From: Naegleria gruberi
Lineage: Eukaryota
DNA: 64,000 bases
Strand: one strand, 5' to 3'
Assembly: GCA_000004985.1 (NCBI GenBank)
Contig: GG738904.1
Shown: in pieces, positions 8-59,159 of the stretch
Layout of the letters: each line of letters begins with the position of its first letter
How positions within the stretch are numbered: the first letter of the stretch is position 1
Made by a program: the position numbers and the translations under genes
The notes under the pieces: generated by a model
Seen by the model: only the letters and a program-made list of their open reading frames with translations
Database searches by the model: none
Told to the model about the DNA's origin: nothing

Positions 8-448
8 ATGAGAACTTATTTCAAAGCTCACTTGAGTAACATGTACAGTTTGGAATTGGTTTTATTCCTCGAACAGGTGAATATTTACAAATTCCTTGTC
101 AAGTCATTGAAATCTCAATCAACTTGTCAAAATTTACTTTCGTCTGAAGAGCAAATTCTTCAGGACATTAGTTTGCCAGCATCTGAAATGGTAACAACTA
201 TCCCAGAGTATGAAACTAAAGCTAGATATATTGTGGAAACATTTTTGAATGATGAAGCCATGTTTCACATTAACACGAGTCGAAAGTTGACAGATAGAAT
301 GAAAACCCTAATTGAAGAGAAGGGTTTTATTGAGGAATTATTTGATGAGATTGAAATGGATGTGAAAACTTCCATGTTAGTTTATTTATTTGCATCGTTT
401 AGACAAACTACATTGTTTACTGAAATGATGCAACGATTTAAAAAGTAA
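8..448 (+). CDS. hypothetical protein, probably a 5'-partial C-terminal fragment
   Basis: 146-aa ORF at the window edge. The frame is open back to nt 2, so the gene likely starts upstream of the window. No recognisable domain. Confidence 0.3.
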   Translation: MRTYFKAHLSNMYSLELVLFLEQVNIYKFLVKSLKSQSTCQNLLSSEEQILQDISLPASEMVTTIPEYETKARYIVETFLNDEAMFHINTSRKLTDRMKTLIEEKGFIEELFDEIEMDVKTSMLVYLFASFRQTTLFTEMMQRFKK

Positions 449-768: not shown

Positions 769-1740
769 ATGAAAACAAATCTAATCTTTTCAATTGCAAT
801 TCTACTCTTACTCGCAATCCTCTCAGTTCAAGCAACTGACAGCTATCAAACTAAACCTCCAGTTGTCGTAGTTGACAAGTATCACAAGCCAAAGCATTGT
901 AAGAGAAAATGCTTAAAGCACAAGTGGATTAAGAAGTGTTTGAAACACAAACTCGTCGGTCAAAAGAAGGTCTGTGATCAATATGCCATTGTCGGTGCTG
1001 GCAAATGTCTCAAACATAAGAAATATTCCAAATGTGACAAGTACAGTAAGGCAACAAAGAAGTGTGTCTTGCATGCATACAAGACTGTTGGATGCGCCAA
1101 GAAGAAGTATTGGAAAGTTTGCGATTCTTATGGAACTAAGAAGATTTGCATCAAGAAGGGTTTCAAGAAGTTCTGTGCCAAGTACAAGATTATCAACAAG
1201 TGCGTCAAGAAGGGATATAAGAAGGTCTGTAAGAAATTCAAGAAGGTTCCAATCAAGAAGTGTGAAAAGAAGAAGGTCTGCGACAAATACACTGTTGATT
1301 CTTACAATAAGAAGGTCGCCAAATGTAGATATGTTAAAAAGTGCAAGATTGTTTCATGGGCAAAGAAATGCGCCAAGTATAAGAAGGTTAAATATTGTAA
1401 GGAGAGAAAATCAGTTAAGAAGTGTTGTCTCATTAAGAAGAAATTCTTCTGTGCCAAGCATAAGACCATCAAATTCTGTAAGCACAAGAAGACTATTTCC
1501 AAATGTGTCAAATATCAAAAGAAGAAGTATTGTGCCAAGACAATTATTATTCCACCAAGATGTATCAAGAAGAAGTATTATAAGAAGTGTTTGAAACGTT
1601 CAAAGGGTAAGAAGATTTGTAAGAAATTCAAATTTGTTGGTGGAAAGAAGAAGTGTTGCAAGTCAATCAAGAAGAAGATTTGTATCAAGAGAAAGACATG
1701 TAAGAAGTCATCAAAACCAATCGTTACACCATCCTTGTAA
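769..1740 (+). CDS. secreted lysine/cysteine-rich repeat protein
   Basis: ATG at 769 gives MKTNLIFSIAILLLLAILSVQA, a clear signal peptide. The mature part is roughly 30% Lys with about 40 Cys spaced every 7-12 residues in reiterated K-x-C and KKC units. The AAG codon dominates. The 736 ATG adds only 11 residues before the signal peptide. Confidence 0.6.
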   Translation: MKTNLIFSIAILLLLAILSVQATDSYQTKPPVVVVDKYHKPKHCKRKCLKHKWIKKCLKHKLVGQKKVCDQYAIVGAGKCLKHKKYSKCDKYSKATKKCVLHAYKTVGCAKKKYWKVCDSYGTKKICIKKGFKKFCAKYKIINKCVKKGYKKVCKKFKKVPIKKCEKKKVCDKYTVDSYNKKVAKCRYVKKCKIVSWAKKCAKYKKVKYCKERKSVKKCCLIKKKFFCAKHKTIKFCKHKKTISKCVKYQKKKYCAKTIIIPPRCIKKKYYKKCLKRSKGKKICKKFKFVGGKKKCCKSIKKKICIKRKTCKKSSKPIVTPSL

Positions 1741-1804
1741 ATTAATAGCATTTACTGAAGAATAAACTAAAATTCTGGTTCTTAATCAAATATAAAAATT
1801 AATT

Positions 1805-1877
1805 CGCCCACCGTGGGGGTCGAACCCACGACCACAAGGTTAAGAGCCTTGCGCTCTACCGACTGAGCTAGACGGGC
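1805..1877 (-). tRNA. tRNA-Lys (anticodon CTT)
   Basis: Reverse complement is GCCCGTCTAGCTCAGTCGGTAGAGCGCAAGGCTCTTAACCTTGTGGTCGTGGGTTCGACCCCCACGGTGGGCG. It has a full cloverleaf with a 7-bp acceptor, D arm, anticodon loop CTCTTAA and T loop TTCGACC. It is nearly identical to metazoan tRNA-Lys-CTT. Confidence 0.85.
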
Positions 1878-2316: not shown

Positions 2317-4629
2317 TTAATTATCATCAGTCATTGTATCAAAGTAATCTAAACTCTCTGCATTGTAATAAACATCCTCAATAATTTCAACAACTTGTGG
2401 AGAATAGTCGAGAGTGAGAGCAGCTTCCTTAATAAGTGGAATGTGTTCCTTATTTTCTTCTTTGAGTAATTCATTTCTAATCATTAAATAGTAGCATCGG
2501 AATACTGGATTAAGTAATTTAAAGCAATCTTCTACTAAGGATCCTTCATAGTGATCTGCTAAAGCGGCACACGAAATGACAATTCTGTCATTGTCTGAAT
2601 TTTGAAGGAGAGTCGAATCTGTGCACTTTTCAATCACATCCTTGTTCAGCACATCCACACCCGAGTAGAATTTGTTGGCCAATTTCAATCTAGGAATCAA
2701 GTAATGAAGTGGAGAAGCCAAATGATACACTACTTGTCCGCTATCTTGCATAAAGAGGAATCCACTATATTCCTTAGGATTGAGCTTGAGAGATTCTTCA
2801 ATCATGGCCTGTTTCCACTTCTTGAGAGAAAAACCATCCTGAACATAACTGGTCAATTCCTTCTCTTCTTGAATAATGTTTGGTTTATCTAAAAATCTAA
2901 AAATTGATTCATCAGCTCCATATTGTCCAATCATTGTCAGCTGCTCACCATTCCAAATAAACATTATAGTCGATTTCTTATTAAGCTCATCCAAGGAAAG
3001 ATTTTGTTGCTTCCAAACTCTCCAAAAATCTTCTCTCCAGTTTGCTCCCTTTTTTTTAAGGAGTGGCCAATCAATCCAGTCTTGATTATCCAATTCAGGA
3101 CAGCTCACTTTCCATTCATTATTGTAGTGGAAGAGACTCACTCTCTTTCCGCATGGAACCTTGAAGCAATAGAGGTAGTCATCAAATCTTGGGAGTATTG
3201 ATGAATCTCTCAGATCAACAGTTCTACCACAAGTTTGTGAAACTATTGAGTAGCACTTGTCAAATTTAATGATACAACCATCAAGAGCCATTAAGTGTGG
3301 ATGAAGGTTGTCAACATTTGGAGGGATGGAGCATTGGAACAGGGTGGCATTTTCGATCTCTGAATTGTTACTAGCTTCAAATGGCACTACTCTAATTCCA
3401 AATAAGTGTTTTAAAACGTAAATTCCATTCATGAAGAGATTGGCAACATAGGATTCAATTGAGCTGATTTTGTTTTTCTTGATATGTTTAGATTCATTCC
3501 TGAATGATGCTCTCAATTTAGAAAGATTATCTGTAATGCAAAACTTGTTCAAGAAATTAATGACATCCTTTTGTTTTTCCAAAAGTTTCTTACCAAACGC
3601 AATAACTTCATCACAATCATCAGTGAATTCAACTTTTAACTGATCATACTCAGGCAAAAAATTCTGCTCATATACATCCCAATTATGATTCGGGAAACTC
3701 AAGACATGATCTTGAAAATCGTTCATCTCTTGGTAGTCTGTAATTTCATTATTTTCCATCAATTGTCTGGAAAATAAGAGTTTTCTCTTGCCATGAACAA
3801 TATTCTTTTTAGAGGTTTTTAGTAATGCTTGGGTAGGTCTTCTCGATAAGTAACCAGTGTAAACGTCTTGATAGTTTTCTCTTTCATCAGAATATGAACC
3901 ATTTTGTGCAAGTTCGAAAAATCTCTTTGCTTTTTGGAAACAATAATCCAATTCTTCTGCATTTGCACTGATTAATCTAGGAATATTTAAATGATGAATA
4001 GCCCAATTCTTTCTGAAATAGCTCATCTTTTCATCTTCATAAATGACATAAACCTGATCAATCAAATGACTTGTCACTGCTTGGTTATATACAGGTTGAT
4101 GATAATGCATGTATGAAATGAAATAACTAGTGTTATACACTGAAACATCCAATTTAAACTCAATGTCTTCTCCCAAGCAGGTCTTGATCGAAATTTGAGT
4201 CTCCCACTTGCTTTGCATATCACTTGCCAAAGCTCCCAATAATTCATCTGTAGATTTATATTCATCCACAACCAAAATTATATCAAAATCAGATTCTGCC
4301 AAATATTGAATCACCTCCTTCTTTTCATCATTCCTCCAACAAACACCAATCAATTCATTCCCATGCGAATCAGTCACTCCATATGGCTCGATCGATCCAG
4401 CATCTCTCACCTGTGAATAATAGGCCTGTGATCCGAAAATATACATTCCTCTCACCTGATCATCACCAAACTTTTCAATTCCCATCTCCCGAACAATTTG
4501 CAAGATCGGATCCTTAAAATCTGATAATTTTTGTATGGAATAAATTTTCTCCCCCTCCCCTGAAGCTGAAGAAATCATAGGATCATGATCAACAGCATCA
4601 TCAGACATTGTAATATTGTTGCTATTCAT
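2317..4629 (-). CDS. hypothetical protein (770 aa), no recognisable domain
   Basis: Long uninterrupted ORF. The ATG at 4629 has an A-rich upstream context (aaaaacaaATG). Coding-like composition. Confidence 0.55.
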   Translation of the reverse strand: MNSNNITMSDDAVDHDPMISSASGEGEKIYSIQKLSDFKDPILQIVREMGIEKFGDDQVRGMYIFGSQAYYSQVRDAGSIEPYGVTDSHGNELIGVCWRNDEKKEVIQYLAESDFDIILVVDEYKSTDELLGALASDMQSKWETQISIKTCLGEDIEFKLDVSVYNTSYFISYMHYHQPVYNQAVTSHLIDQVYVIYEDEKMSYFRKNWAIHHLNIPRLISANAEELDYCFQKAKRFFELAQNGSYSDERENYQDVYTGYLSRRPTQALLKTSKKNIVHGKRKLLFSRQLMENNEITDYQEMNDFQDHVLSFPNHNWDVYEQNFLPEYDQLKVEFTDDCDEVIAFGKKLLEKQKDVINFLNKFCITDNLSKLRASFRNESKHIKKNKISSIESYVANLFMNGIYVLKHLFGIRVVPFEASNNSEIENATLFQCSIPPNVDNLHPHLMALDGCIIKFDKCYSIVSQTCGRTVDLRDSSILPRFDDYLYCFKVPCGKRVSLFHYNNEWKVSCPELDNQDWIDWPLLKKKGANWREDFWRVWKQQNLSLDELNKKSTIMFIWNGEQLTMIGQYGADESIFRFLDKPNIIQEEKELTSYVQDGFSLKKWKQAMIEESLKLNPKEYSGFLFMQDSGQVVYHLASPLHYLIPRLKLANKFYSGVDVLNKDVIEKCTDSTLLQNSDNDRIVISCAALADHYEGSLVEDCFKLLNPVFRCYYLMIRNELLKEENKEHIPLIKEAALTLDYSPQVVEIIEDVYYNAESLDYFDTMTDDN

Positions 4630-10772: not shown

Positions 10773-12263
10773 CTAAAGTTTTAACGAAGTCATGGATGAT
10801 AAACTGATCATTGGAGATCTTGGTGATAGCCTCTTTTGCTTTGCATTCCAATCATTTGAAACTTTCTGAATGGTCTTGTTAGAGAATTTGAGTCTTGAAT
10901 AGGAATCTACCAAGTTGCTCAGCACGTGAAGTTGAATATCGGCAAATAAATCATCTGTTAATGCATTTTGATTATCTGCAAAACTAATATTGTCCATAAT
11001 TACGGTCTTTACAGAATAGAGATCAGAGGGCAAATTCAATTGGAAAGGTGAATCTTCGTACAAGTATTTCTTTACCATTCGGTGTGCAATTTTCTTTCTT
11101 TGCCTTAATGCTGTTTCACGTTTATATTTCTCAATATCAGCATAGCACAGCAAATTTTCAGGGCAAAACGACTTTCTCAAATAATCCAAGAATATTTGAA
11201 ATGTTTCCTTATTGGAAATTATCATTTCAATTTCTGAATCACATTCTCTTTTTTCTTTTGAATCTGCATGGATGGCTCTAATTATAGGAATTAAAATTGT
11301 GAGAACCAACTCGAATGTACTGTAAGCTGCAACTACAAATCCAGAAGGAACGAAATAGTCCACAATCTCTACCACTGAAGCAACACTTAAAAATGTAAAG
11401 ATTACTGCAGTCAAGATTTGAGTGGCAACCAAAAGGAAAACTTCCCTCTTAATATGCCAAGTATCATTGTCAACAGTAAAGCAAAGTCCAATAGCAATAA
11501 ATTCCACAATAAAATAGCAAATACTAATTCCCACAACAAATAGAGTTGAGGGAAACCCTAACCCACATCCTTTTCCAAGTGAAATCAAGAGTGCTCCATC
11601 CATAAAGTAATGTTCATTTTGGAAAAAGCTATCCTCTACTACCATAAGCACAAACCACAGAAAGAGTTGGACTCCAATGGAAAGCCAAAATACTATGAGA
11701 GATGCTGTATTGTTGGTGAGAATGGAGTGTGCCTTGATGATGAATTTCTCTCTTGTCGTATTCTCTTCACGAGCTATAACTTGATTATTTTCAAAAGTTT
11801 CCACAACAGATGTCATGACTGATGAATTGACATTCCTATTACTAGTTGATATACTGTTGTTATTACTATTGTTGGAATTTTGTTTGGCTTGAATAAACAA
11901 GCTCTCTGTGTTCTGTTGTTCTTGTTGCATGCAATAGGAGCTTGATAAAGTGTTTGTCTTTATCAAATTGAATCTGTGCTGAAATACTAATCGCAAACAC
12001 CTCAATATTGAAGGCATTGCAAAACAAGGAGGAATTGAATAGCTAACAATACTAAATATCATACAGGGAAATCTAGATCTACCAACCGTAAAACGGAGAA
12101 GAGTAACAGATACATAGATAAAACTCCCTGTTAGTGTAACTACAATACCACTGATGGTACGTGATTGAAGATGTCCACTTTTCCTCTTCTTTATCACTCC
12201 TATGGCACAAATAACAACAAGAATGATGTACAAAACCAAACATGTTGCTGATAATATTGGCAT
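10773..12263 (-). CDS. 7TM receptor-RGS fusion protein
   Basis: Seven hydrophobic helices at the N-terminus. The C-terminal RGS domain reads ETFQIFLDYLRKSFCPENLLCYADIEKYKR...HRMVKKYLYEDSPFQLNLPSDLY...SYSRLKFS. ATG at 12263. Confidence 0.7.
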   Translation of the reverse strand: MPILSATCLVLYIILVVICAIGVIKKRKSGHLQSRTISGIVVTLTGSFIYVSVTLLRFTVGRSRFPCMIFSIVSYSIPPCFAMPSILRCLRLVFQHRFNLIKTNTLSSSYCMQQEQQNTESLFIQAKQNSNNSNNNSISTSNRNVNSSVMTSVVETFENNQVIAREENTTREKFIIKAHSILTNNTASLIVFWLSIGVQLFLWFVLMVVEDSFFQNEHYFMDGALLISLGKGCGLGFPSTLFVVGISICYFIVEFIAIGLCFTVDNDTWHIKREVFLLVATQILTAVIFTFLSVASVVEIVDYFVPSGFVVAAYSTFELVLTILIPIIRAIHADSKEKRECDSEIEMIISNKETFQIFLDYLRKSFCPENLLCYADIEKYKRETALRQRKKIAHRMVKKYLYEDSPFQLNLPSDLYSVKTVIMDNISFADNQNALTDDLFADIQLHVLSNLVDSYSRLKFSNKTIQKVSNDWNAKQKRLSPRSPMISLSSMTSLKL

Positions 12264-18584: not shown

Positions 18585-18656
18585 GGGACCATGGTCTAGT
18601 GGTATGATTCTCGCTTTGGGTGCGAGAGGCCGTGGGTTCGATTCCCACTGGTCCCC
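18585..18656 (+). tRNA. tRNA-Pro (anticodon TGG)
   Basis: GGGACCATGGTCTAGTGGTATGATTCTCGCTTTGGGTGCGAGAGGCCGTGGGTTCGATTCCCACTGGTCCCC. Cloverleaf with anticodon loop TTTGGGT. Close to eukaryotic tRNA-Pro. Confidence 0.85.
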
Positions 18657-32644: not shown

Positions 32645-34396
32645 TTATTTGGTCGGAATTTTAAGTGAATCCAGATTCAAATCACTTCTCAAATTCTTCA
32701 CCTTATTACTCTCAAACTTGACCTTATTCTTCTTAACATGTTGCTTTTGAGTTTGTTTCTGAAATTCCACAGTTTGCTTGAATCGATGATGAGTATCCAA
32801 CATCAAGACACATATTTCACTTTCCACATTATCAAACAGAGTATCAGTCAAATGTTCATTCTCACCACTTGCAAAGTAATCCAATTGTTCCTTAACTCTA
32901 TCTGCAGCACTCTTATTAATATTCACTGATTTGTCTCCATTGATATCGAGGAAATCAGTGTAAATTTCAAAGGCAATTTCGTACTTTTTCTTTTCAATTT
33001 CATGGAGATCCTTCTCAGTGTAGCCCTTCTTCTTCTTCTTTTTGTGTTGATGGTCCAAGTTGGAGGAGTTGGCAGTTGCAGAGCTACCTGAATCGGAGAG
33101 AGAATCAGAATGAGAATTTGGACTCATGTCATCATAGAGGAATACTTGAATTTCAAAGGACTTTTCACACAGGATTTTGTAATCTGTAATTTTGTCCAAT
33201 AGTAAGTAATTATCCAAACTCAATTCTTGTTTACAATGGTCCCTGAATAGCTTTCTCAATTTGTTATCCCTCATAGTATCCATCAAGAGGAAGGCGTTGG
33301 CTGCCTTGAGCTTTTTCGTATTACTTGCATCCTTTCGAATAGAGACAATGATTGAGGCAATCACTGATGGCAACACAATGCAAATGGAAACACACACCAC
33401 AATGAGTGAAATTGTAGTGATGGTTACATTAACGCTTCGAGAACTATCTTCCAATTCATTCAGATAGTCAACTGTTGGCTGGAATTCTTCACTGTATCCT
33501 GCAATGTCATATTTGTAAGCGTCAGATTCTAATAACGTCATGGCATATGAATAGTTTCCAATATTTGCCAATTCTAACATTTGAGTTTCAAGAGCAATGG
33601 CCTTGGAAGTTCTCAAATCAGCAACTGAAACATTATGAGTATAGGTATATCGCAAATTAGTTGGCAAATAGGCCAACATTTTCGTAATTTCAGTATTGAA
33701 CTTGGTCTTACTCGTTTCGTATTTTGCAGTATAATTGGCTGTCAGTTGCAAATTGTTATTGGTATAGACAGATGATCTGCAAGCTGCCACCATTCTTTCT
33801 CTATACAATGTAATGTTCAAATCCATACTACCAATTGCTGTTTGTAATTCCGAGTTGACCACATAGTAAGCCACAATCAGGATAAGAAGAGCCATAAAGG
33901 CAAGGAAATTTACAATAAGGGAACTCAAATTCAAAAATTTGACAGGAGTCAATTCAATCGTGGAACCGAAACAAGTTCTAATTTTGAGCATGGTTGTGGA
34001 GGAATGACTTTTAGTGGTAGTCTTTGAACCAATACCAGAGGCAGATCTAGGTTGTTTCTTCTCACCATTATATGGATTACCAGTTGCCACATCATGTTCC
34101 TCAGCAAAATTGGCATTTCTATTCGATTTGTCCATCAGAGCCATCGATCTCATCTCAATGGACACAGAACTGGACTGATGCAAATGATTATTATCATGAG
34201 ATTGCAAAGAACTCGTCGAAGTATTCAAATCAGTTGGCAAATGATGAGAACCATTGGCATAAAGTGAATAATCACAATTATTTGGATCAATTTTGTGAAG
34301 TTCTTCAATGACATTTTGGATGGTTGACTTTTCATGGAGTGAATTCGAAGGAGTGGAAAGAGAAGGATGTTCTGTGATATTCTCTTGTTGCTGCAT
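32645..34396 (-). CDS. two-TM sensor-type RGS-domain protein
   Basis: The first ATG is at 34396 (MQQQENITEHP...). TM1 is LIVNFLAFMALLILIVAYYVV, followed by an extracytoplasmic domain of about 190 aa, then TM2 ISLIVVCVSICIVLPSVIASIIV. The C-terminal RGS domain reads LRKLFRDHCKQELSLDNYLLLDKITDYK...EIAFEIYTDFLDINGDKSVNINKSAADRVKEQL...ICVLMLDTHHRFKQT and carries a low-complexity insert. Confidence 0.6.
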   Translation of the reverse strand: MQQQENITEHPSLSTPSNSLHEKSTIQNVIEELHKIDPNNCDYSLYANGSHHLPTDLNTSTSSLQSHDNNHLHQSSSVSIEMRSMALMDKSNRNANFAEEHDVATGNPYNGEKKQPRSASGIGSKTTTKSHSSTTMLKIRTCFGSTIELTPVKFLNLSSLIVNFLAFMALLILIVAYYVVNSELQTAIGSMDLNITLYRERMVAACRSSVYTNNNLQLTANYTAKYETSKTKFNTEITKMLAYLPTNLRYTYTHNVSVADLRTSKAIALETQMLELANIGNYSYAMTLLESDAYKYDIAGYSEEFQPTVDYLNELEDSSRSVNVTITTISLIVVCVSICIVLPSVIASIIVSIRKDASNTKKLKAANAFLLMDTMRDNKLRKLFRDHCKQELSLDNYLLLDKITDYKILCEKSFEIQVFLYDDMSPNSHSDSLSDSGSSATANSSNLDHQHKKKKKKGYTEKDLHEIEKKKYEIAFEIYTDFLDINGDKSVNINKSAADRVKEQLDYFASGENEHLTDTLFDNVESEICVLMLDTHHRFKQTVEFQKQTQKQHVKKNKVKFESNKVKNLRSDLNLDSLKIPTK

Positions 34397-35352
34397 TTTG
34401 GGAGGTGATTGAGTTGGATTGTTTTTTTGAGTTTGGATATTCAATAGTATGGAGGGTTATTAATATCACAATAGTTTTGAATAGCTTGTGTGTGATAAGA
34501 AGATGAAGATTAAATGTGCGCGCTGTTGGGTTAATGTAATAGAGCATGTAAGAGATTGAGAAAAGGAGTCCTTCATCTTATTTACAATTAGTTTCGTACT
34601 TCTAACAACTCCATTGGAAACTGGTTGGAAAATTCCCAAATTCAAACATTCAAGCATTGCAGCTTTGTTAAATATCAAACATAAAAGTCATTTGTAAAGT
34701 ACGTCCACTCTTTCGCGCACTAAATTTTTGACTCATGTGAAAAATCGATGGTCAATTGTTACGTTCTTGCATGAAGCGGTATTTTAAAATTAAGATCCTC
34801 ATGTGGTAAAGTAAATGAGAATTTGTTGATTTGGAGACATTTTAGGAAGATGACAGTTCTCCCATAACGAAGAAGCGTACTGATTGAAATTGTTCTTTGG
34901 TTTCGAATAATGTTAATATTACTGTAGTTTAATGTTAGAACTGTAGTTTCTGTTCACTGTGAAATATTTCCGCCACCAACACTTACTGCAACAAAATTAC
35001 GTAGAAATCACACTCGGGATGAAAAGAGATTAATCTCCACTGGTATTTTAAAGTAATATTTAATTATTCGAATGGTTTCTTATTCTATAACTAAGGTCAA
35101 ATTACTTGCCGATTTTAGAACGTCGACATTCGGCGAAAGAGAGATTGAGCCGAATAACAAAACTTTCCATAAATTTTCACTGCATGACCAATTTATTTGA
35201 TATTGGAAACTGATATTGACGCAGACGAAACAATTCTTCACTCGCATTACATTGTTTTGTGTGGATATACTTGTCTAATTTTCTTCTCTGGATGTAATTT
35301 TCATCTACAGTGAACCCAGTCGAAACTGTAGATTGATGGTTTGTTGATTCGT

Positions 35353-40956: not shown

Positions 40957-43475
40957 ATGCAAAGACTAAACTTTATTAGAATCCTTTGCTGCTACTTGCT
41001 TACAACAATAATCTTCATGTCAACATGTGTTGTTGAATGTAGAAACATGCATGTCATTGACAAACAAAGTCAATTGCGAGATATATCACAACCTTTCACT
41101 GTGGTTTCTATTCGAAAGTATTACACAAGTTTCGTCAATCATTTGGCACCAATTATGACCTCTGGAGTGGAATTTCTTTCAGATAGTCGACCTCTCCAAG
41201 AATATTTCAATGTTTACTGCGTTTATACTTCAGTTTTCAGCAGTGGAAATTTGGCGCCAAATGACAATTCCATATTAAGTAATCTCAACTCTTCTATTTG
41301 TTCAAGTATAAATCATTTAGACGATTCCAACATGCCAATCGATGCTGCCCATAACAGTTATCTTGTTCTGAACCAAGAACCTTCCATCATCTTCTCCCCA
41401 AATAGTTTACTTCCACTTTGGTCAATTATCTTGAAAAATGCAATGGTTGACCAGACGATGAGGTATAAAGTTTGGAATTATTCGATTTCTGAAACGTTTA
41501 CAATGTATGCACTGTATGATAAAGCAACAAGTATGGAATATGTGTTGGATAGCGATCTAGTTTCGAATAGGGAAGGAATTGTAAAAGAATTGGAAGAGGA
41601 AATATGGAACGATTGTAAATTATTCGAAAGAGTGTACGAAATTCAAATGAGAGAAGGTTTAGGATTGGGATTTTCGTCAATCTCCATTTCTGAAAATAGG
41701 ATTTGCAATGAAACATTACAAAATTCAACATTTATGGAAGAATATCATCAAGCAATTTTGAGAATTGATTTATACTTGAATTTAATGTTGAATTATTCGA
41801 ATCTTGTGAATACTACTGGAAGTTTAACTCAAATGCTTCCAAGTTCCACTTTCTATTTTATGGATAATCTTATTGCTACCTTTAATCCAACCTTTCTAGT
41901 GGAAGCTATTCGAAATGTTTTACAAAATGGAGGATTTAACACATATTTGTCCTATTCGAAACCTTCCTCGAACTATGATATGGAATACTTCTCCATGCTT
42001 CAAAAATCAGATCTGAAACCAGTTTCTCAACTCATGATTCATCCAAATTGTTTCTGCTATTACAACTTGTATGCCTCTCAATATTATTTCAGAGATTCTT
42101 ACCTTCTCAAACTAATCTTCAATGATATAATCTATTTTGGAATATTTTTTATTGGAGTTTTCATCTTCCTCTTTAATTGTGTGAGTTACTGCTTGGATTG
42201 TAAACTTTTTGTAAAGAAGAGAATTCTCCTTCCCTTATTAGGACCTCCAACGTTGATTGTAATCTCAGCATGTTACACTGTATTTTTGAGATCGAAATTT
42301 TCAGTGGCCACTTATTGGATTCTTGTGATTATTGCTGTTTTTCCTGCTCCAATTCTAATTGGTACTTATTTAGTTTCCTTATTTAGATTTTCCTATTGAA
42401 AAATATGGATTTGTGGCAGAAAAAGATTTTCAAATCACCCAAAATTCAGAAACACTTGGCTTCCACATGTACTTCAATGGTATTTTCCATAATTACAACC
42501 TTAATTGTCCTTGTCATTTGTTTGGCACCGATTGTCACTACTTCTGTGGCTATTTTGTTTAGTTCCGCAAATATTCCACAAGAATTGTTTATTCTATTGA
42601 TGGGATTTGAAGTTCTCTTCATGCTATTGTTTGCATTGATATTTTTCATAGTTGACTTGATCAATACTGGAGCTGCAATGATTAAGAGGAAAGGTTTAGG
42701 ATATTATTTCTTCTATGATGATCCTTTCTATTACAGAATTGACTTGTTTATCATGATCTTAATGATGGGATCTGTCATTCCAATCATTGTTGGTTCAGTT
42801 GAGGATGGAACTCCCTATTTCATTGTTCGAAAGGTCTTTACAGTAGTTTTCTTTGTCATGTTCTATGCAATCATTGGTGGAACTGTGACAATTGCTCACT
42901 GGATCAACAAGTTCAGAAGACTGAAATCCAAATACAGAAATGCACAAGTTACCACATTGGAATCATTCTTGGAAGATCAGCAATTTAGAGAAATGTTTCG
43001 AACCTATTCCAAAAATGAATTTTCATTGGAAAATATTATCATGTATGAAGAATTGGAAAAGCTAAAAAAGAACAATAAGGTAACCCCTCAGGAATTGAAA
43101 TCTCTTCAAGAGAAATTCCTCCTTTCATCCTCTGTTCATGAAGTTAATTATCCATCGGCAGTTAAGAAGAACTTTCAAGAATTATTGGATTCGTATAAGG
43201 ATGAGGACGTTTCTTCCAATGACAGTGATTCAACCACACAAACAAAATCATCCAATTCCCTTAAACAATCAACAGGACTTCCAAAGAAGGGAACTGTTAT
43301 GTTGGAAAAGATGTTAGAATTGGTCATGCCAGAATTATTGAAAAACATGTTTGACACATTTTCTCGCTTAAAGACAACACCTGAATTTGGGCATTGGTTT
43401 GAGATGAAGCAAATACAGACAACAGAATTGGGAGAGGAACAACACCAAGAACAACCAAAAGATGAGAAAGTTTAA
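40957..43475 (+). CDS. large-ectodomain 7TM receptor-RGS fusion protein (apparent frameshift at about 42390-42400)
   Basis: ATG at 40957 gives the signal peptide MQRLNFIRILCCYLLTTIIFMSTCVVEC. The ectodomain is about 390 aa. There are 3 TM helices at the end of ORF 40909..42399 and 4 TM helices at the start of ORF 42396..43475, which makes 7TM. The C-terminal RGS domain reads LESFLEDQQFREMFRTYSKNEFSLENIIMYEELEKLKK...NYPSAVKKNFQELL. The two ORFs overlap by only 4 nt next to an AAAAA run. No intron of plausible size fits, so this is a 1-nt indel, either an assembly error or a pseudogene. Confidence 0.5.
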
Positions 43476-43699
43476 AAACAGCTTAATCCAATAAAAATAA
43501 CATCTCAAAGTATGGGCAGAAATCCTGTATTGTTGGATTTGTTCTCTATTCCAAGTCTACCTTGAATTTTAACCTTTTTCCTTCCTGAATGATGGATTGT
43601 TCACCAAAATGTCTTAAAATTGAACCATATTCAATTCATCACACTCAATATTTCGAGGTAAACACGTTAATGAGGAAATAAGATTCAAACTATTGTGCT

Positions 43700-43770
43700 C
43701 GTCTCGTGGTGTAATGGTAGCATAGTGGACTTTGAATCCATTGACGGAGGTTCGATTCCTCCCGAGACGG
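43700..43770 (+). tRNA. tRNA-Gln (anticodon TTG)
   Basis: CGTCTCGTGGTGTAATGGTAGCATAGTGGACTTTGAATCCATTGACGGAGGTTCGATTCCTCCCGAGACGG. The acceptor CGTCTCG/CGAGACG pairs perfectly. The anticodon loop is CTTTGAA. It matches eukaryotic tRNA-Gln-TTG. Confidence 0.85.
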
Positions 43771-44109
43771 TAAACGTGGCGAGCGTAAAAAATTTTGGTT
43801 TTTACAATGTGTAATAGCTCCAGATAAATTAAACAATAACACCAACCAGCTGACGCAGATTAATAACGCATATGGAAAGAGAATAAACCATTGGTTGGCT
43901 ATTATTGTAATGTTTGTTGTTCGGTTCAATGGTTATCTTCTGGAAACCAGTTCCATATTTGGCAAGTTGCAATATTCACACTTATCGAAAAAGTATGAAT
44001 ATCTCTAAAAAAACAGCCGGCTAGCAGCCTTGCAAGGTCATCTAATTGGTTTCCTTTCATTCCAACATTATCACAACAAAAACAAATAACACTGCATTCG
44101 TTAGAAACA

Positions 44110-52159: not shown

Positions 52160-52232
52160 GGGGTCTTGGCGCAGTCGGTAGCGCGTAGGTCTCATAATCC
52201 TAAGGTCGTGAGTTCGATCCTCACAGACCCCA
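52160..52232 (+). tRNA. tRNA-Met (elongator, anticodon CAT)
   Basis: GGGGTCTTGGCGCAGTCGGTAGCGCGTAGGTCTCATAATCCTAAGGTCGTGAGTTCGATCCTCACAGACCCCA. The anticodon loop is CTCATAA. It matches eukaryotic elongator tRNA-Met, including the T-T mismatch at 31-39. It is not the initiator type. Confidence 0.85.
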
Positions 52233-57592: not shown

Positions 57593-59159
57593 ATGCTCGA
57601 AAATCAAAACCCACACGAAAATACAAATAATAATTCATCATCTACATTAAAGATGATAGGATCAGGATCAGTTCAATCAATTGAGAAGAGTGTATTCATT
57701 GATATGGATACATTGTGTTATCCAAAATTGCAACACCTCTCACAAGTGGAGGAAAATATCAAGGGAGGATTATTCTATTGAAGATGGTAAGGAACAGCCA
57801 TTTGTCTTGTTGGAAAAATTGGATGGAAGTCTCTGTTCACCAATTATTGAGAGAGTTGTTTCAGAAAGTGATGCTTCTAGTTTGAATAGCTCATTGAAAA
57901 AGAATAATTTTGCTTCAGTTTCTGCAGAGAAAATTGAAAAGAGAGCATATGATACTTTCAGATTGAGAATGAGAACTAAATTGTCGCATACCAATGCTAT
58001 TGTAATGGGTATGGAAGAGTTGATTTATGATTTGGGAGACGAAGGAACAAGGAGAAATGCCAAAGGAGAGGATATCAAGTTAATATTGAATGATCATTTG
58101 AAGAATGTTCCAACTTTCGAATACAAGACAAGTGAAATGACAAAAGAAGAGGAGGAATATTTGGTTTTCAAAATTGATGAACAAGCTTTGGAAATTGATG
58201 CCAATTTCACTCAACTCTCTGAAAAAGTGCAAAACTTTATCAGATTTTGCATTCATTGGATAAATAAGGGTTTCACACCACTCTTTGAATTCTTCAGTAA
58301 GGAACACAAGATTGTCATTGATTATGGAGACAAACCATTCCTATCATTGTTGGCTCTTAGACATACAGTGGATGGTTACTTCCTCCCATATTCACAAGTC
58401 AAGAAGAGTGCTCAACAATATGGCATTGACTGTGTCAAGGAATGCTCAAATGAACAAGTCATAGAAGCAGCCAAGACAGGAGATATGGATGAAATTTTGA
58501 AAGCCATTCGAAATGAAAGAGGCGTCGAAGGATATGTCCTTGTGTTAAATAATGGTTGGATGTTCAAAGTCAAATCCATGTGGTACAATAACATTCACAA
58601 AACCAATGGATTTATCAGTAAGGGAGAATTGAAAGAATCTAGAATATGGCAATATTGTTTCGATTCAAAAATTGATGATGTTATAGGATTTGTTAGAAGA
58701 GACGAGGATAGAATTCGTCTACAAGAATTCAATGACACTGTCATCAATGCTCTGAATAATTATGTCTCAAAAGTTCAACAATTCAAAGAGATAATTCAAC
58801 TTGAATTACAGAAAGAATTCCCAAATACACCAATCGAAGAAATTCCAATGAAAGATTACTCAAGAGTTGCCAAACAAGTAATTAAGGATGAACCAAATTA
58901 TGTTTTCACAGCACTCGTTGTAAATAAGAAGGATCAAACCAGTTTATCATCACTCATTAAGGAATATTGTAGTAGAAATGTTGTCAATCAATTGGGATCT
59001 ATCAAAAACATGCTAGGTTGTCAAGACATTGAATTTATTTCCAGAAGTGAAATTAATAGAAGAGCAAAATTGCAGAGACAGAAAGAAGGAGCTACACAAG
59101 AAGAAGAAGTCAACCAAGAAGAGGACGAAGATTCTGAAGATGCTGCTGAAGATTTATAA
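57593..59159 (+). CDS. ATP-dependent RNA ligase-like (Rnl family) nucleotidyltransferase with apparent 1-nt frameshift
   Basis: Motif I is EKLDGSL (KxDG). Motif IV-like is EGYVLVL and motif V is WMFKVKS, at canonical spacing. The N-terminal 60 aa (ATG at 57593) are in a different frame from the main ORF 57681..59159. The frames can be joined by removing one G from the GGG run at about 57766-57768. No intron fits. Confidence 0.55.

Follow-up and report, generated by a model that had tools for sequence, protein, structure and literature searches.

A predicted secreted, lysine- and cysteine-rich protein of Naegleria gruberi with mirrored cysteine spacing, encoded next to a tRNA-Lys(CTT) gene

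Gene organisation

We analysed a 64,000-nt stretch of Naegleria gruberi DNA (contig GG738904.1 of assembly GCA_000004985.1; the whole stretch is referred to here as the window), which is AT-rich with a GC content of 33%. A real Naegleria gene at 769..1740 encodes a secreted and extremely basic protein; downstream of it, on the opposite strand, lies a tRNA-Lys(CTT) gene. New in this protein family are a mirror-symmetric cysteine ladder with a 9-residue period, the exclusive occurrence of aspartate in the context D-x-Y, and a use of the lysine codon AAG that is specific to lysine runs. The mirrored spacing suggests a long disulfide-laddered hairpin rod. The features of the locus are as follows (coordinates, strand, description):

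769..1740, plus strand: coding sequence (CDS) of the secreted Lys/Cys-rich protein, intron-less, 323 codons and stop (from open reading frame, translation and collinear homologues)
769..834, plus strand: predicted signal peptide, residues 1-22 (MKTNLIFSIAILLLLAILSVQA) (hydropathy, cleavage motif, homologues, helix in the AlphaFold2 (AF2) model)
835..897, plus strand: N-terminal segment free of Cys and rich in Pro, residues 23-43; two D-x-Y motifs (TDSY, VDKY) and low predicted local distance difference test (pLDDT) values
898..1281, plus strand: left (N-terminal) arm, residues 44-171, 15 Cys mostly 9 apart (Cys gaps, mirror pairing, AF2 strands)
1282..1323, plus strand: central linker without Cys, residues 172-185 (DKYTVDSYNKKVAK), the proposed tip of the hairpin; two D-x-Y motifs
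1324..1701, plus strand: right (C-terminal) arm, residues 186-311, 17 Cys, i.e. 15 ladder positions plus two CC doublets (219/220, 296/297)
1702..1737, plus strand: short Cys-free C-terminal tail, residues 312-323 (KKSSKPIVTPSL), read from the sequence
1761..1766, plus strand: AATAAA, likely polyadenylation signal, 21 nt past the stop codon (read from the sequence)
1794..1798, minus strand: TTTTT, 7-11 nt beyond the 3' end of the tRNA, likely terminator for RNA polymerase III (read from the sequence)
1805..1877, minus strand: tRNA-Lys(CTT) gene (ARAGORN; Rfam RF00005, 66.4 bits, E = 3e-12)

The open reading frame (ORF) extends from the ATG at 769 to the stop codon at 1738-1740 and specifies 323 amino acids (aa). 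An in-frame ATG at 736 is an unlikely start, since the homologues open with MK and a hydrophobic stretch. Residues 5-20 have a mean Kyte-Doolittle hydropathy of +3.1, compared to -0.8 for the mature part, and a fitting cleavage site lies at MKTNLIFSIAILLLLAILSVQA|TD, where V at -3 and A at -1 form a V-x-A motif. This segment is kept in the alignment of homologues, and the AF2 model shows it as a helix. We infer that it is a signal peptide and that the protein is secreted, in agreement with the initial annotation, which had described a secreted Lys/Cys-rich repeat protein. A second ORF on the same strand, in another frame (974-1594, 206 aa, Arg/Ser-rich), was rejected as a gene, being a by-product of the AAG repeats (AAG AAG read as AGA AGA).

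Composition and repeat units

Lysine accounts for 107 of the 323 residues (33.1%; 35.2% of the mature protein) and cysteine for 32 (9.9%; 10.6% of the mature protein), while tyrosine makes up 6% of the mature protein. The mature part of 301 aa has a net charge of about +103 and a computed isoelectric point of about 10.1. The estimate of about 30% Lys in the initial annotation thus holds, whereas its figure of about 12% Cys was slightly too high. The KKC and KxC units it had described are present as well: of the 32 cysteines, 8 occur as KKC, 15 as KxC and 6 as xKC, with three in none of these contexts. A description as low-complexity units, however, undersells a precisely spaced, mirror-symmetric Cys scaffold that is kept even where Lys falls to about 13%. 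Only seven tryptic peptides of at least 7 aa would arise from the mature protein, so standard proteomics would probably miss it.

The gap between consecutive cysteines is exactly 9 in 14 of 31 cases, and the autocorrelation of the Cys positions has its maxima at lags 9, 18 and 27. As an approximate consensus, the nonamers read [A/hydrophobic]-K-[K/Y/H]-K-[aromatic]-[hydrophobic]-K-[K/hydrophobic]-C. No DNA-level tandem repeat was found in the gene, Tandem Repeats Finder giving just an 18-bp, 2-copy trace. A recent tandem duplication was therefore rejected as the origin of the repeats, and the Cys periodicity appears to be old and maintained at the protein level. Searches of the 64-kb window by tblastn revealed no paralogues elsewhere.

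A lineage-restricted protein family

An exhaustive hidden Markov model (HMM) search of 1.84 billion cluster representatives retrieved 18 relatives only. The best matches to the window protein are N. gruberi proteins. The named members are NAEGRDRAFT_67458, _64980, _66117 and _76199 of N. gruberi, FDP41_004030 of N. fowleri, C9374_009239 of N. lovaniensis and ABK040_005866 of Willaertia magna, all of them annotated as "hypothetical"; the remaining relatives stem from environmental assemblies. The phmmer and hmmsearch E-values to the family range from 1e-16 to 1e-132 with a collinear alignment, identities are 36-76%, the Cys columns are conserved and every indel is in frame. The Cys columns hold in an alignment of 15 sequences, even for environmental members with about 13% Lys, and Lys content across paralogues varies between 21 and 35%. 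Judged from these alignments, the conserved feature is the Cys framework; the extreme Lys content elaborates on it, most strongly in the gene at 769..1740.

Neither a metagenome contig scan with the family profile nor a word-indexed profile search yielded further family members. Pfam-A returned no family at E <= 1 for the window protein (CBM14, EGF-like, granulin, metallothionein and defensin included) and only sub-threshold noise for eight relatives, and the PDB gave neither a sequence nor a fold match for the window protein. The initial annotation had recognised no homology, and no characterised Cys-rich family has come up in Pfam, the PDB or the exhaustive HMM searches. As far as sequence comparison can tell, the family is uncharacterised, matches no described family and is restricted to Naegleria, Willaertia and close or environmental relatives.

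Several members deserve comment. Over its C-terminal half, the window protein shares about 93% identity with NAEGRDRAFT_76199 (P0002), a NEG-M model in which a SAM/PB1 N-terminus is fused to this half (window 1276-1737). The SAM/PB1 part is found nowhere in the 64-kb window, and the chimera probably reflects erroneous modelling across an assembly gap of a 39.8-kb scaffold. An identical record of the window protein was not found, so that the stretch appears gruberi-like but distinct from the reference protein set. The closest orthologue-like copy, with 71% aa identity, lies on a Logan contig of SRR32051688 (L004, 1-1343; gene 290-1264). It has an in-frame TGA at codon 115, where the window gene has Gly108 (GGA), and the gene caller split it into two ORFs; the TGA could be a sequencing error, a pseudogene mutation or a polymorphism. 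A paralogue on contig L001 is N. gruberi-like and falls into the same 90% cluster as NAEGRDRAFT_64980. Near its 5' end (L001 1-75) there is a GTATGT...TTCAG intron, translated through by the metagenome gene caller; the window gene is intron-less. Two environmental members, P0013 (L003 3836-5977) and P0020, carry an N-terminal extension of about 380 aa with a repeat of about 38-40 aa, a recurring 'CPxG(K/Q)K' and Cys gaps of 18, 5, 5 and 8-12; this extension has no Pfam match.

Mirrored cysteine spacing

The linker at residues 172-185 is the centre of a mirror symmetry. Read outward from it, the inter-Cys distances on the N-terminal side are 6, 11, 9, 9, 9, 9, 9, 10, 10, 9, 11, 12, 9 and 4, and those on the C-terminal side 6, 9, 9, 9, 9, 9, 9, 9, 10, 9, 10, 13, 8 and 6. 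As a result, 15 of the 16 possible Cys pairs of the window protein lie at i+j = 353-357 (171-186, 165-192, ..., 57-297, 48-305, 44-311), centred on about 355, and the left and right inter-rung distances correlate with r = 0.88. When the order of the gaps was shuffled, 15 pairs were reached in 0.1% of trials (p = 0.001).

The symmetry recurs in six other full-length members, irregular gaps included, with left/right correlations of r = 0.84-0.99 in the family (member, shuffle p, mirrored feature):

P0022, P0005: p < 0.001; mirrored gaps of 17 and 18 (one rung missing in both arms)
P0021, P0008: p < 0.001 to 0.025; longest inter-rung stretches 28/30 (P0021) and 32/30 (P0008)
P0011: p = 0.012-0.024; mirrored gaps 13/13, 12/12 and 11/11
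P0003: p = 0.025-0.08; no mirrored irregular gaps beyond those of the window protein

From one subfamily to the next, the two arms change in length together (127/125, 119/115, 136/138, 155/158 and 153/158 residues), and the central loop has grown to 37-41 residues in other subfamilies. Since gene duplication would yield a direct rather than a mirrored repeat of the spacing, a structural constraint is the simplest cause: the two halves would run antiparallel and in register, with Cys facing Cys in a disulfide ladder. Homologues with irregular inner gaps favour a pairing over the whole length. Of the seven full-length members tallied, five, among them the window protein (32), have an even number of cysteines in the mature part, and the L004 copy (30 Cys) has lost two cysteines together relative to the window protein; even counts and paired loss would fit full disulfide bonding.

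With the 15-sequence alignment as input, AF2 arrived at a pLDDT of 75 (84-91 in blocks, with a drop at the linker), compared to an unusable model with a pLDDT of 45 from four sequences. In the model from 15 sequences, strands of great length pair up, 96-130 against 134-171 and 186-224 against 228-261, and put cysteines in register at 127-136, 118-145 and 109-154 and at 219-228, 210-237, 201-246 and 192-255. To that extent the prediction agrees with long two-stranded beta ribbons in Cys register.

Aspartate in a D-x-Y context

All seven aspartates of the mature protein occur as D-x-Y (TDSY, VDKY, CDQY, CDKY, CDSY, CDKY, VDSY), where 0.44 would be expected (binomial probability 4e-9; none of 200000 shuffles reached seven). 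The motifs sit either just after a ladder Cys in the N-terminal arm or in the Cys-free, Pro-rich ends and the central loop. The left arm holds all four C-D-x-Y motifs, the last of which starts at C171 and extends into the linker. In relatives, D-x-Y takes up 5 of 6, 6 of 11, 12 of 17, 10 of 13 and 11 of 19 aspartates. The L004 copy again has seven of seven, one motif having lost D and Y together and a new VDTY having been gained elsewhere. The tails of homologues end in tandem [VI]D[ST]YKP peptides, e.g. IDTYKPAIDSYKPTIDSYKPKIDSYKP, and the N. fowleri orthologue, with 12.5% Tyr, has four tandem peptides of the IDSYKP type. Tyrosines in a fixed context beside many lysines, in a protein that is secreted, bring cross-linked structural proteins to mind.

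Lysine codons and the neighbouring tRNA gene

The initial annotation had stated that almost all Lys codons are AAG. AAG is indeed preferred, at 77% rather than almost all, and the bias is confined to runs of lysine (AAG:AAA, share of AAG):

Gene, all Lys: 82:25, 77%
19 other long ORFs of the window, all Lys: 408:474, 46%
Gene, Lys in KK/KKK runs: 59:6, 91%
Gene, isolated Lys: 23:19, 55%
Background ORFs, Lys in runs: 127:83, 60%
Background ORFs, isolated Lys: 281:391, 42%
L001 paralogue, runs / isolated: 32:5 / 21:15, 86 / 58%
L004 copy, runs / isolated: 44:17 / 18:18, 72 / 50%

The gene differs from the 19 background ORFs in its overall AAG share (Fisher p = 2e-9), as do runs from isolated Lys within the gene (Fisher p = 3.5e-5), while isolated Lys residues are no different from the background (p = 0.11). 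None of the 36 KK pairs is encoded by AAA-AAA, and the longest A-run of the CDS is 5 nt, where random codons drawn at background frequency would give about 10 nt on average. The GC content at third codon positions is 0.49, compared to 0.31 in the background ORFs. According to two studies, coding poly(A) tracks stall ribosomes, cause frameshifting and cut protein output (PMC5263891, PMC7295572). As the AAG excess is concentrated in KK/KKK runs, it points to avoidance of poly(A) tracts and not to a link with the tRNA; together with a general optimisation towards C or G at the third position, this avoidance accounts for the AAG bias, and the tRNA does not. Expression level alone was rejected as its cause, the isolated Lys codons not being significantly biased.

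The tRNA-Lys(CTT) gene that the initial annotation had placed downstream on the opposite strand was recovered by both ARAGORN and Rfam. The two genes are convergent, and a spacer of 64 nt separates the stop codon from the tRNA gene. That the most Lys-rich and AAG-rich gene of the window sits this close to its one tRNA-Lys(CTT) might be taken as a sign of functional coupling, be it that the AAG decoder is supplied locally, that chromatin is shared or that the two genes are co-regulated. Such a coupling is most unlikely. It is established that tRNAs act in trans, so that one nearby copy cannot serve one mRNA, and the codon bias that a local decoder might explain is limited to runs, as seen above. 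Furthermore, no tRNA gene was found on the four homologue-bearing contigs L001 (3.9 kb), L002 (13.8 kb), L003 (6.4 kb) and L004 (the closest copy, with 79 bp of sequence downstream of it), a sample to which the reference Naegleria loci do not belong. Three further tRNA genes of the window, Pro-TGG (18585-18656), Gln-TTG (43699-43771) and Met-CAT (52160-52232), likewise lie in short intergenic spacers, 72-380 bp from flanking ORFs, so that all four are within 64-380 bp of an ORF, such proximity being normal in this compact genome. The adjacency is almost certainly a coincidence, as the initial annotation had already thought most likely, and although it drew attention to the locus we attach no importance to it. 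Four tRNA genes per 64 kb is fairly dense.

Proposed architecture and role

As the most likely reading, though at somewhat less than even chances, we propose that the gene product serves outside the cell as a structural or cementing component, with the cyst wall or some other secreted matrix as its most probable site, and that it has a ladder-rod architecture; the reading of codons and tRNA given above belongs to this proposal. The halves 44-171 and 186-311 would be arranged antiparallel and in register around the Cys-free linker, and up to 15 facing Cys pairs would form a disulfide ladder along a long two-stranded beta ribbon. Fully extended, this rod would measure roughly 40 nm by our own estimate, flanked and capped by the Cys-free segments with their D-x-Y motifs. 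Its Lys coat could bind polyanionic glycans or surfaces, and insolubilisation could proceed via disulfides from two off-ladder Cys per chain, to which Tyr/Lys chemistry at the D-x-Y sites would possibly add. A structural role may be inferred from the signal peptide, the laddered scaffold, the basic surface, the tandem Tyr-Lys-Pro ends and the off-ladder Cys, and also from the restriction of the family to cyst-forming vahlkampfiid amoebae. A more specific version, which we put forward as tentative and rather doubtful, is a hitherto undescribed protein architecture in which the whole chain makes up one giant beta-hairpin, each arm having about 130 residues, with a cystine ladder of about 15 rungs at 9-residue intervals and a charge of about +100. 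It would be secreted as a covalently braced polycationic nanorod of tens of nm for the cyst wall or matrix, with D-x-Y motifs and off-ladder Cys as cross-links between rods.

A number of observations weigh against this proposal. AF2 adds turns at about 131 and 224 and does not give a single hairpin, and its predicted template modelling score is low (0.26); as these turns are mirror images of each other (sum 355), the model would fit either a three-way arrangement or a giant hairpin with one additional fold. The disulfide geometry was derived from the Cys register alone, and with most gaps equal to 9, several local registers are possible. Two Cys per chain stand outside the ladder, and the P0021/P0008 subfamily has an odd count of 37 Cys. 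The shuffle probabilities given above refer to a null that ignores a layout of regular core and irregular ends, and the homologues are not independent samples. To our knowledge, a two-stranded ribbon with about 130 residues per arm is without solved precedent. The functional part is drawn from composition and analogy only: literature searches on cyst-wall proteomes and encystation transcriptomes of Naegleria, on the cyst-wall analysis by Werth and Kahn, on cellulose and chitin, on cysteine-rich secreted proteins and on the locus tags brought up no expression, localisation or biochemistry of any family member.

The main rival, in our view an unlikely one, is an antimicrobial or prey-handling polycation, secreted or delivered to food vacuoles, that binds, aggregates or permeabilises bacteria through its charge of +103; its active form would be either the whole giant disulfide-braced beta-hairpin or smaller cationic hairpin peptides cut from it. 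Naegleria is a bacterivore, the codon usage suggests high expression, and the spread of Lys content across paralogues would suit a fast-evolving effector. The signal peptide, the extreme cationicity and the predicted disulfide-braced hairpin recall protegrins, tachyplesins, theta-defensins and arenicin, which are likewise cationic and secreted and consist of two antiparallel strands with parallel disulfide rungs. These peptides, however, have 17-21 residues with 2-3 rungs, and mature hairpin antimicrobial peptides of fewer than about 30 residues are released from a precursor, whereas here about 270 ladder residues with up to 15 rungs, one per 9 residues, belong to a mature region of 301 aa, an order of magnitude larger and kept as one unit. 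There is no sequence relationship to them, and the units are not set off by dibasic or other regular processing sites. A polyprotein of independent peptides is further disfavoured by the collinearity over the whole length and by a Cys register kept across species. Nor does the protein have an amphipathic hydrophobic face (mean hydropathy of the mature part, -0.8), and the terminal D-x-Y-K-P tandem peptides are foreign to antimicrobial peptides. Less probable still is a Lys- and Tyr-based glue for attachment of the amoeba to its substrate, or a component of the mucoid plug of the cyst pore, as opposed to the bulk wall, which would work like the Lys/Tyr(DOPA, 3,4-dihydroxyphenylalanine)-rich adhesives of mussels or flatworm eggshell proteins. 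The secreted protein with 35% Lys, 6% Tyr and 11% Cys, the D-x-Y context of every Asp, suggesting a recognised Tyr site, and the Tyr-rich N. fowleri orthologue with its tandem peptides speak for it. Yet Tyr modification and a tyrosinase or peroxidase partner are without support, the case being one of composition, and this role largely overlaps the structural-matrix proposal. Plant extensins and mussel foot, trematode eggshell and coccidian Tyr-rich oocyst-wall proteins are similarly secreted and basic, with tandem Tyr-Lys-Pro peptides and a fixed Tyr context, but they are without a periodic Cys ladder, and isodityrosine, DOPA or dityrosine has been demonstrated in them, whereas D-x-Y is here only a motif with striking statistics.

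The remaining alternatives place the product inside the cell or deny that there is one. Besides the AMP-like and cyst-wall-like compositions, both of which stay plausible, the initial annotation had mentioned a nucleic-acid-binding composition, and with 35% Lys the charge is indeed like that of protamines or histone H1, as would befit an intracellular binder of DNA, RNA or polyphosphate. The combined Lys and Cys richness superficially recalls metallothioneins, as would befit a metal binder. We regard both as very unlikely. The N-terminal signal peptide is conserved, and the even Cys number and mirror pairing point to disulfides, which are formed in the secretory pathway. Metallothioneins are cytosolic, with C-x-C, C-C and C-x-x-C clusters, whereas the cysteines of the window protein are isolated at 9-residue spacing, with only two CC doublets and no C-x-C or C-x-x-C. 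A spurious low-complexity ORF or a pseudogene without product is barely conceivable: it could draw on the low sequence complexity, the chimeric reference N. gruberi model at the locus and the in-frame TGA of the L004 copy, but the 323-codon frame is intact, homologues with 36-76% identity keep the Cys columns with all indels in frame, codon usage is non-random and depends on context in frame, and a signal peptide as well as an AATAAA past the stop codon are present.

The broad kind of protein is a known one, in that secreted, disulfide-rich, cationic repeat proteins of protists would fit the description; the implied architecture is without a solved counterpart. Analogues in favour of a structural role come from amoebal cyst walls: in Acanthamoeba, Leo has two 8-Cys domains, in some cases with Thr/Lys/His-rich spacers, and Jonah(1) a Thr/Lys/Cys-rich domain, while Entamoeba Jacob has 6-Cys domains (PMC6541295). 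The family shares with these a signal peptide, lineage-restricted Cys-rich modules, basic Lys-rich segments, the lack of an enzymatic domain and cyst-forming hosts. However, Leo, Jonah and Jacob are compact lectin domains with spacers, for which glycan binding and cyst-specific expression have been shown, whereas the family protein is one continuous periodic scaffold. Kinship to Leo or Jacob, whose sequences were not aligned directly, was indicated neither by Pfam, which gave no match, nor by the exhaustive HMM search, which gave no relatives outside the Heterolobosea. The stems of pore-forming toxins (anthrax protective antigen, lysenin, aerolysin), which are very long beta-hairpins, may be listed as another near system.

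The cyst is the resistant and disseminating stage of the genus, to which the lethal N. fowleri belongs. In the literature searched, no inventory of proteins from the cyst wall or secreted matrix of Naegleria was found. With a family member in N. fowleri (FDP41_004030), this lineage-specific and probably abundant secreted protein would be a candidate for a wall component or for a diagnostic target. If true, one hairpin braced by about 15 disulfides in a mirror-symmetric ladder would be an unusual and designable rod-like scaffold. Finally, the gene offers a clean natural case of poly(A)-tract avoidance shaping synonymous codons in an AT-rich eukaryote.

Other features of the window

The next ORF beyond the tRNA gene (2317-4629, minus strand, 770 aa) has no Pfam match at E <= 1. 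Four ORFs in the 64 kb encode a regulator of G-protein signalling (RGS) domain, namely 8-448 (plus strand), 10773-12263 (minus), 32645-34444 (minus) and 42396-43475 (plus), which amounts to a local concentration of one signalling family. The ORF at 57681-59159 (plus strand) contains a T4-type RNA ligase domain (PF09511, E = 8e-18).

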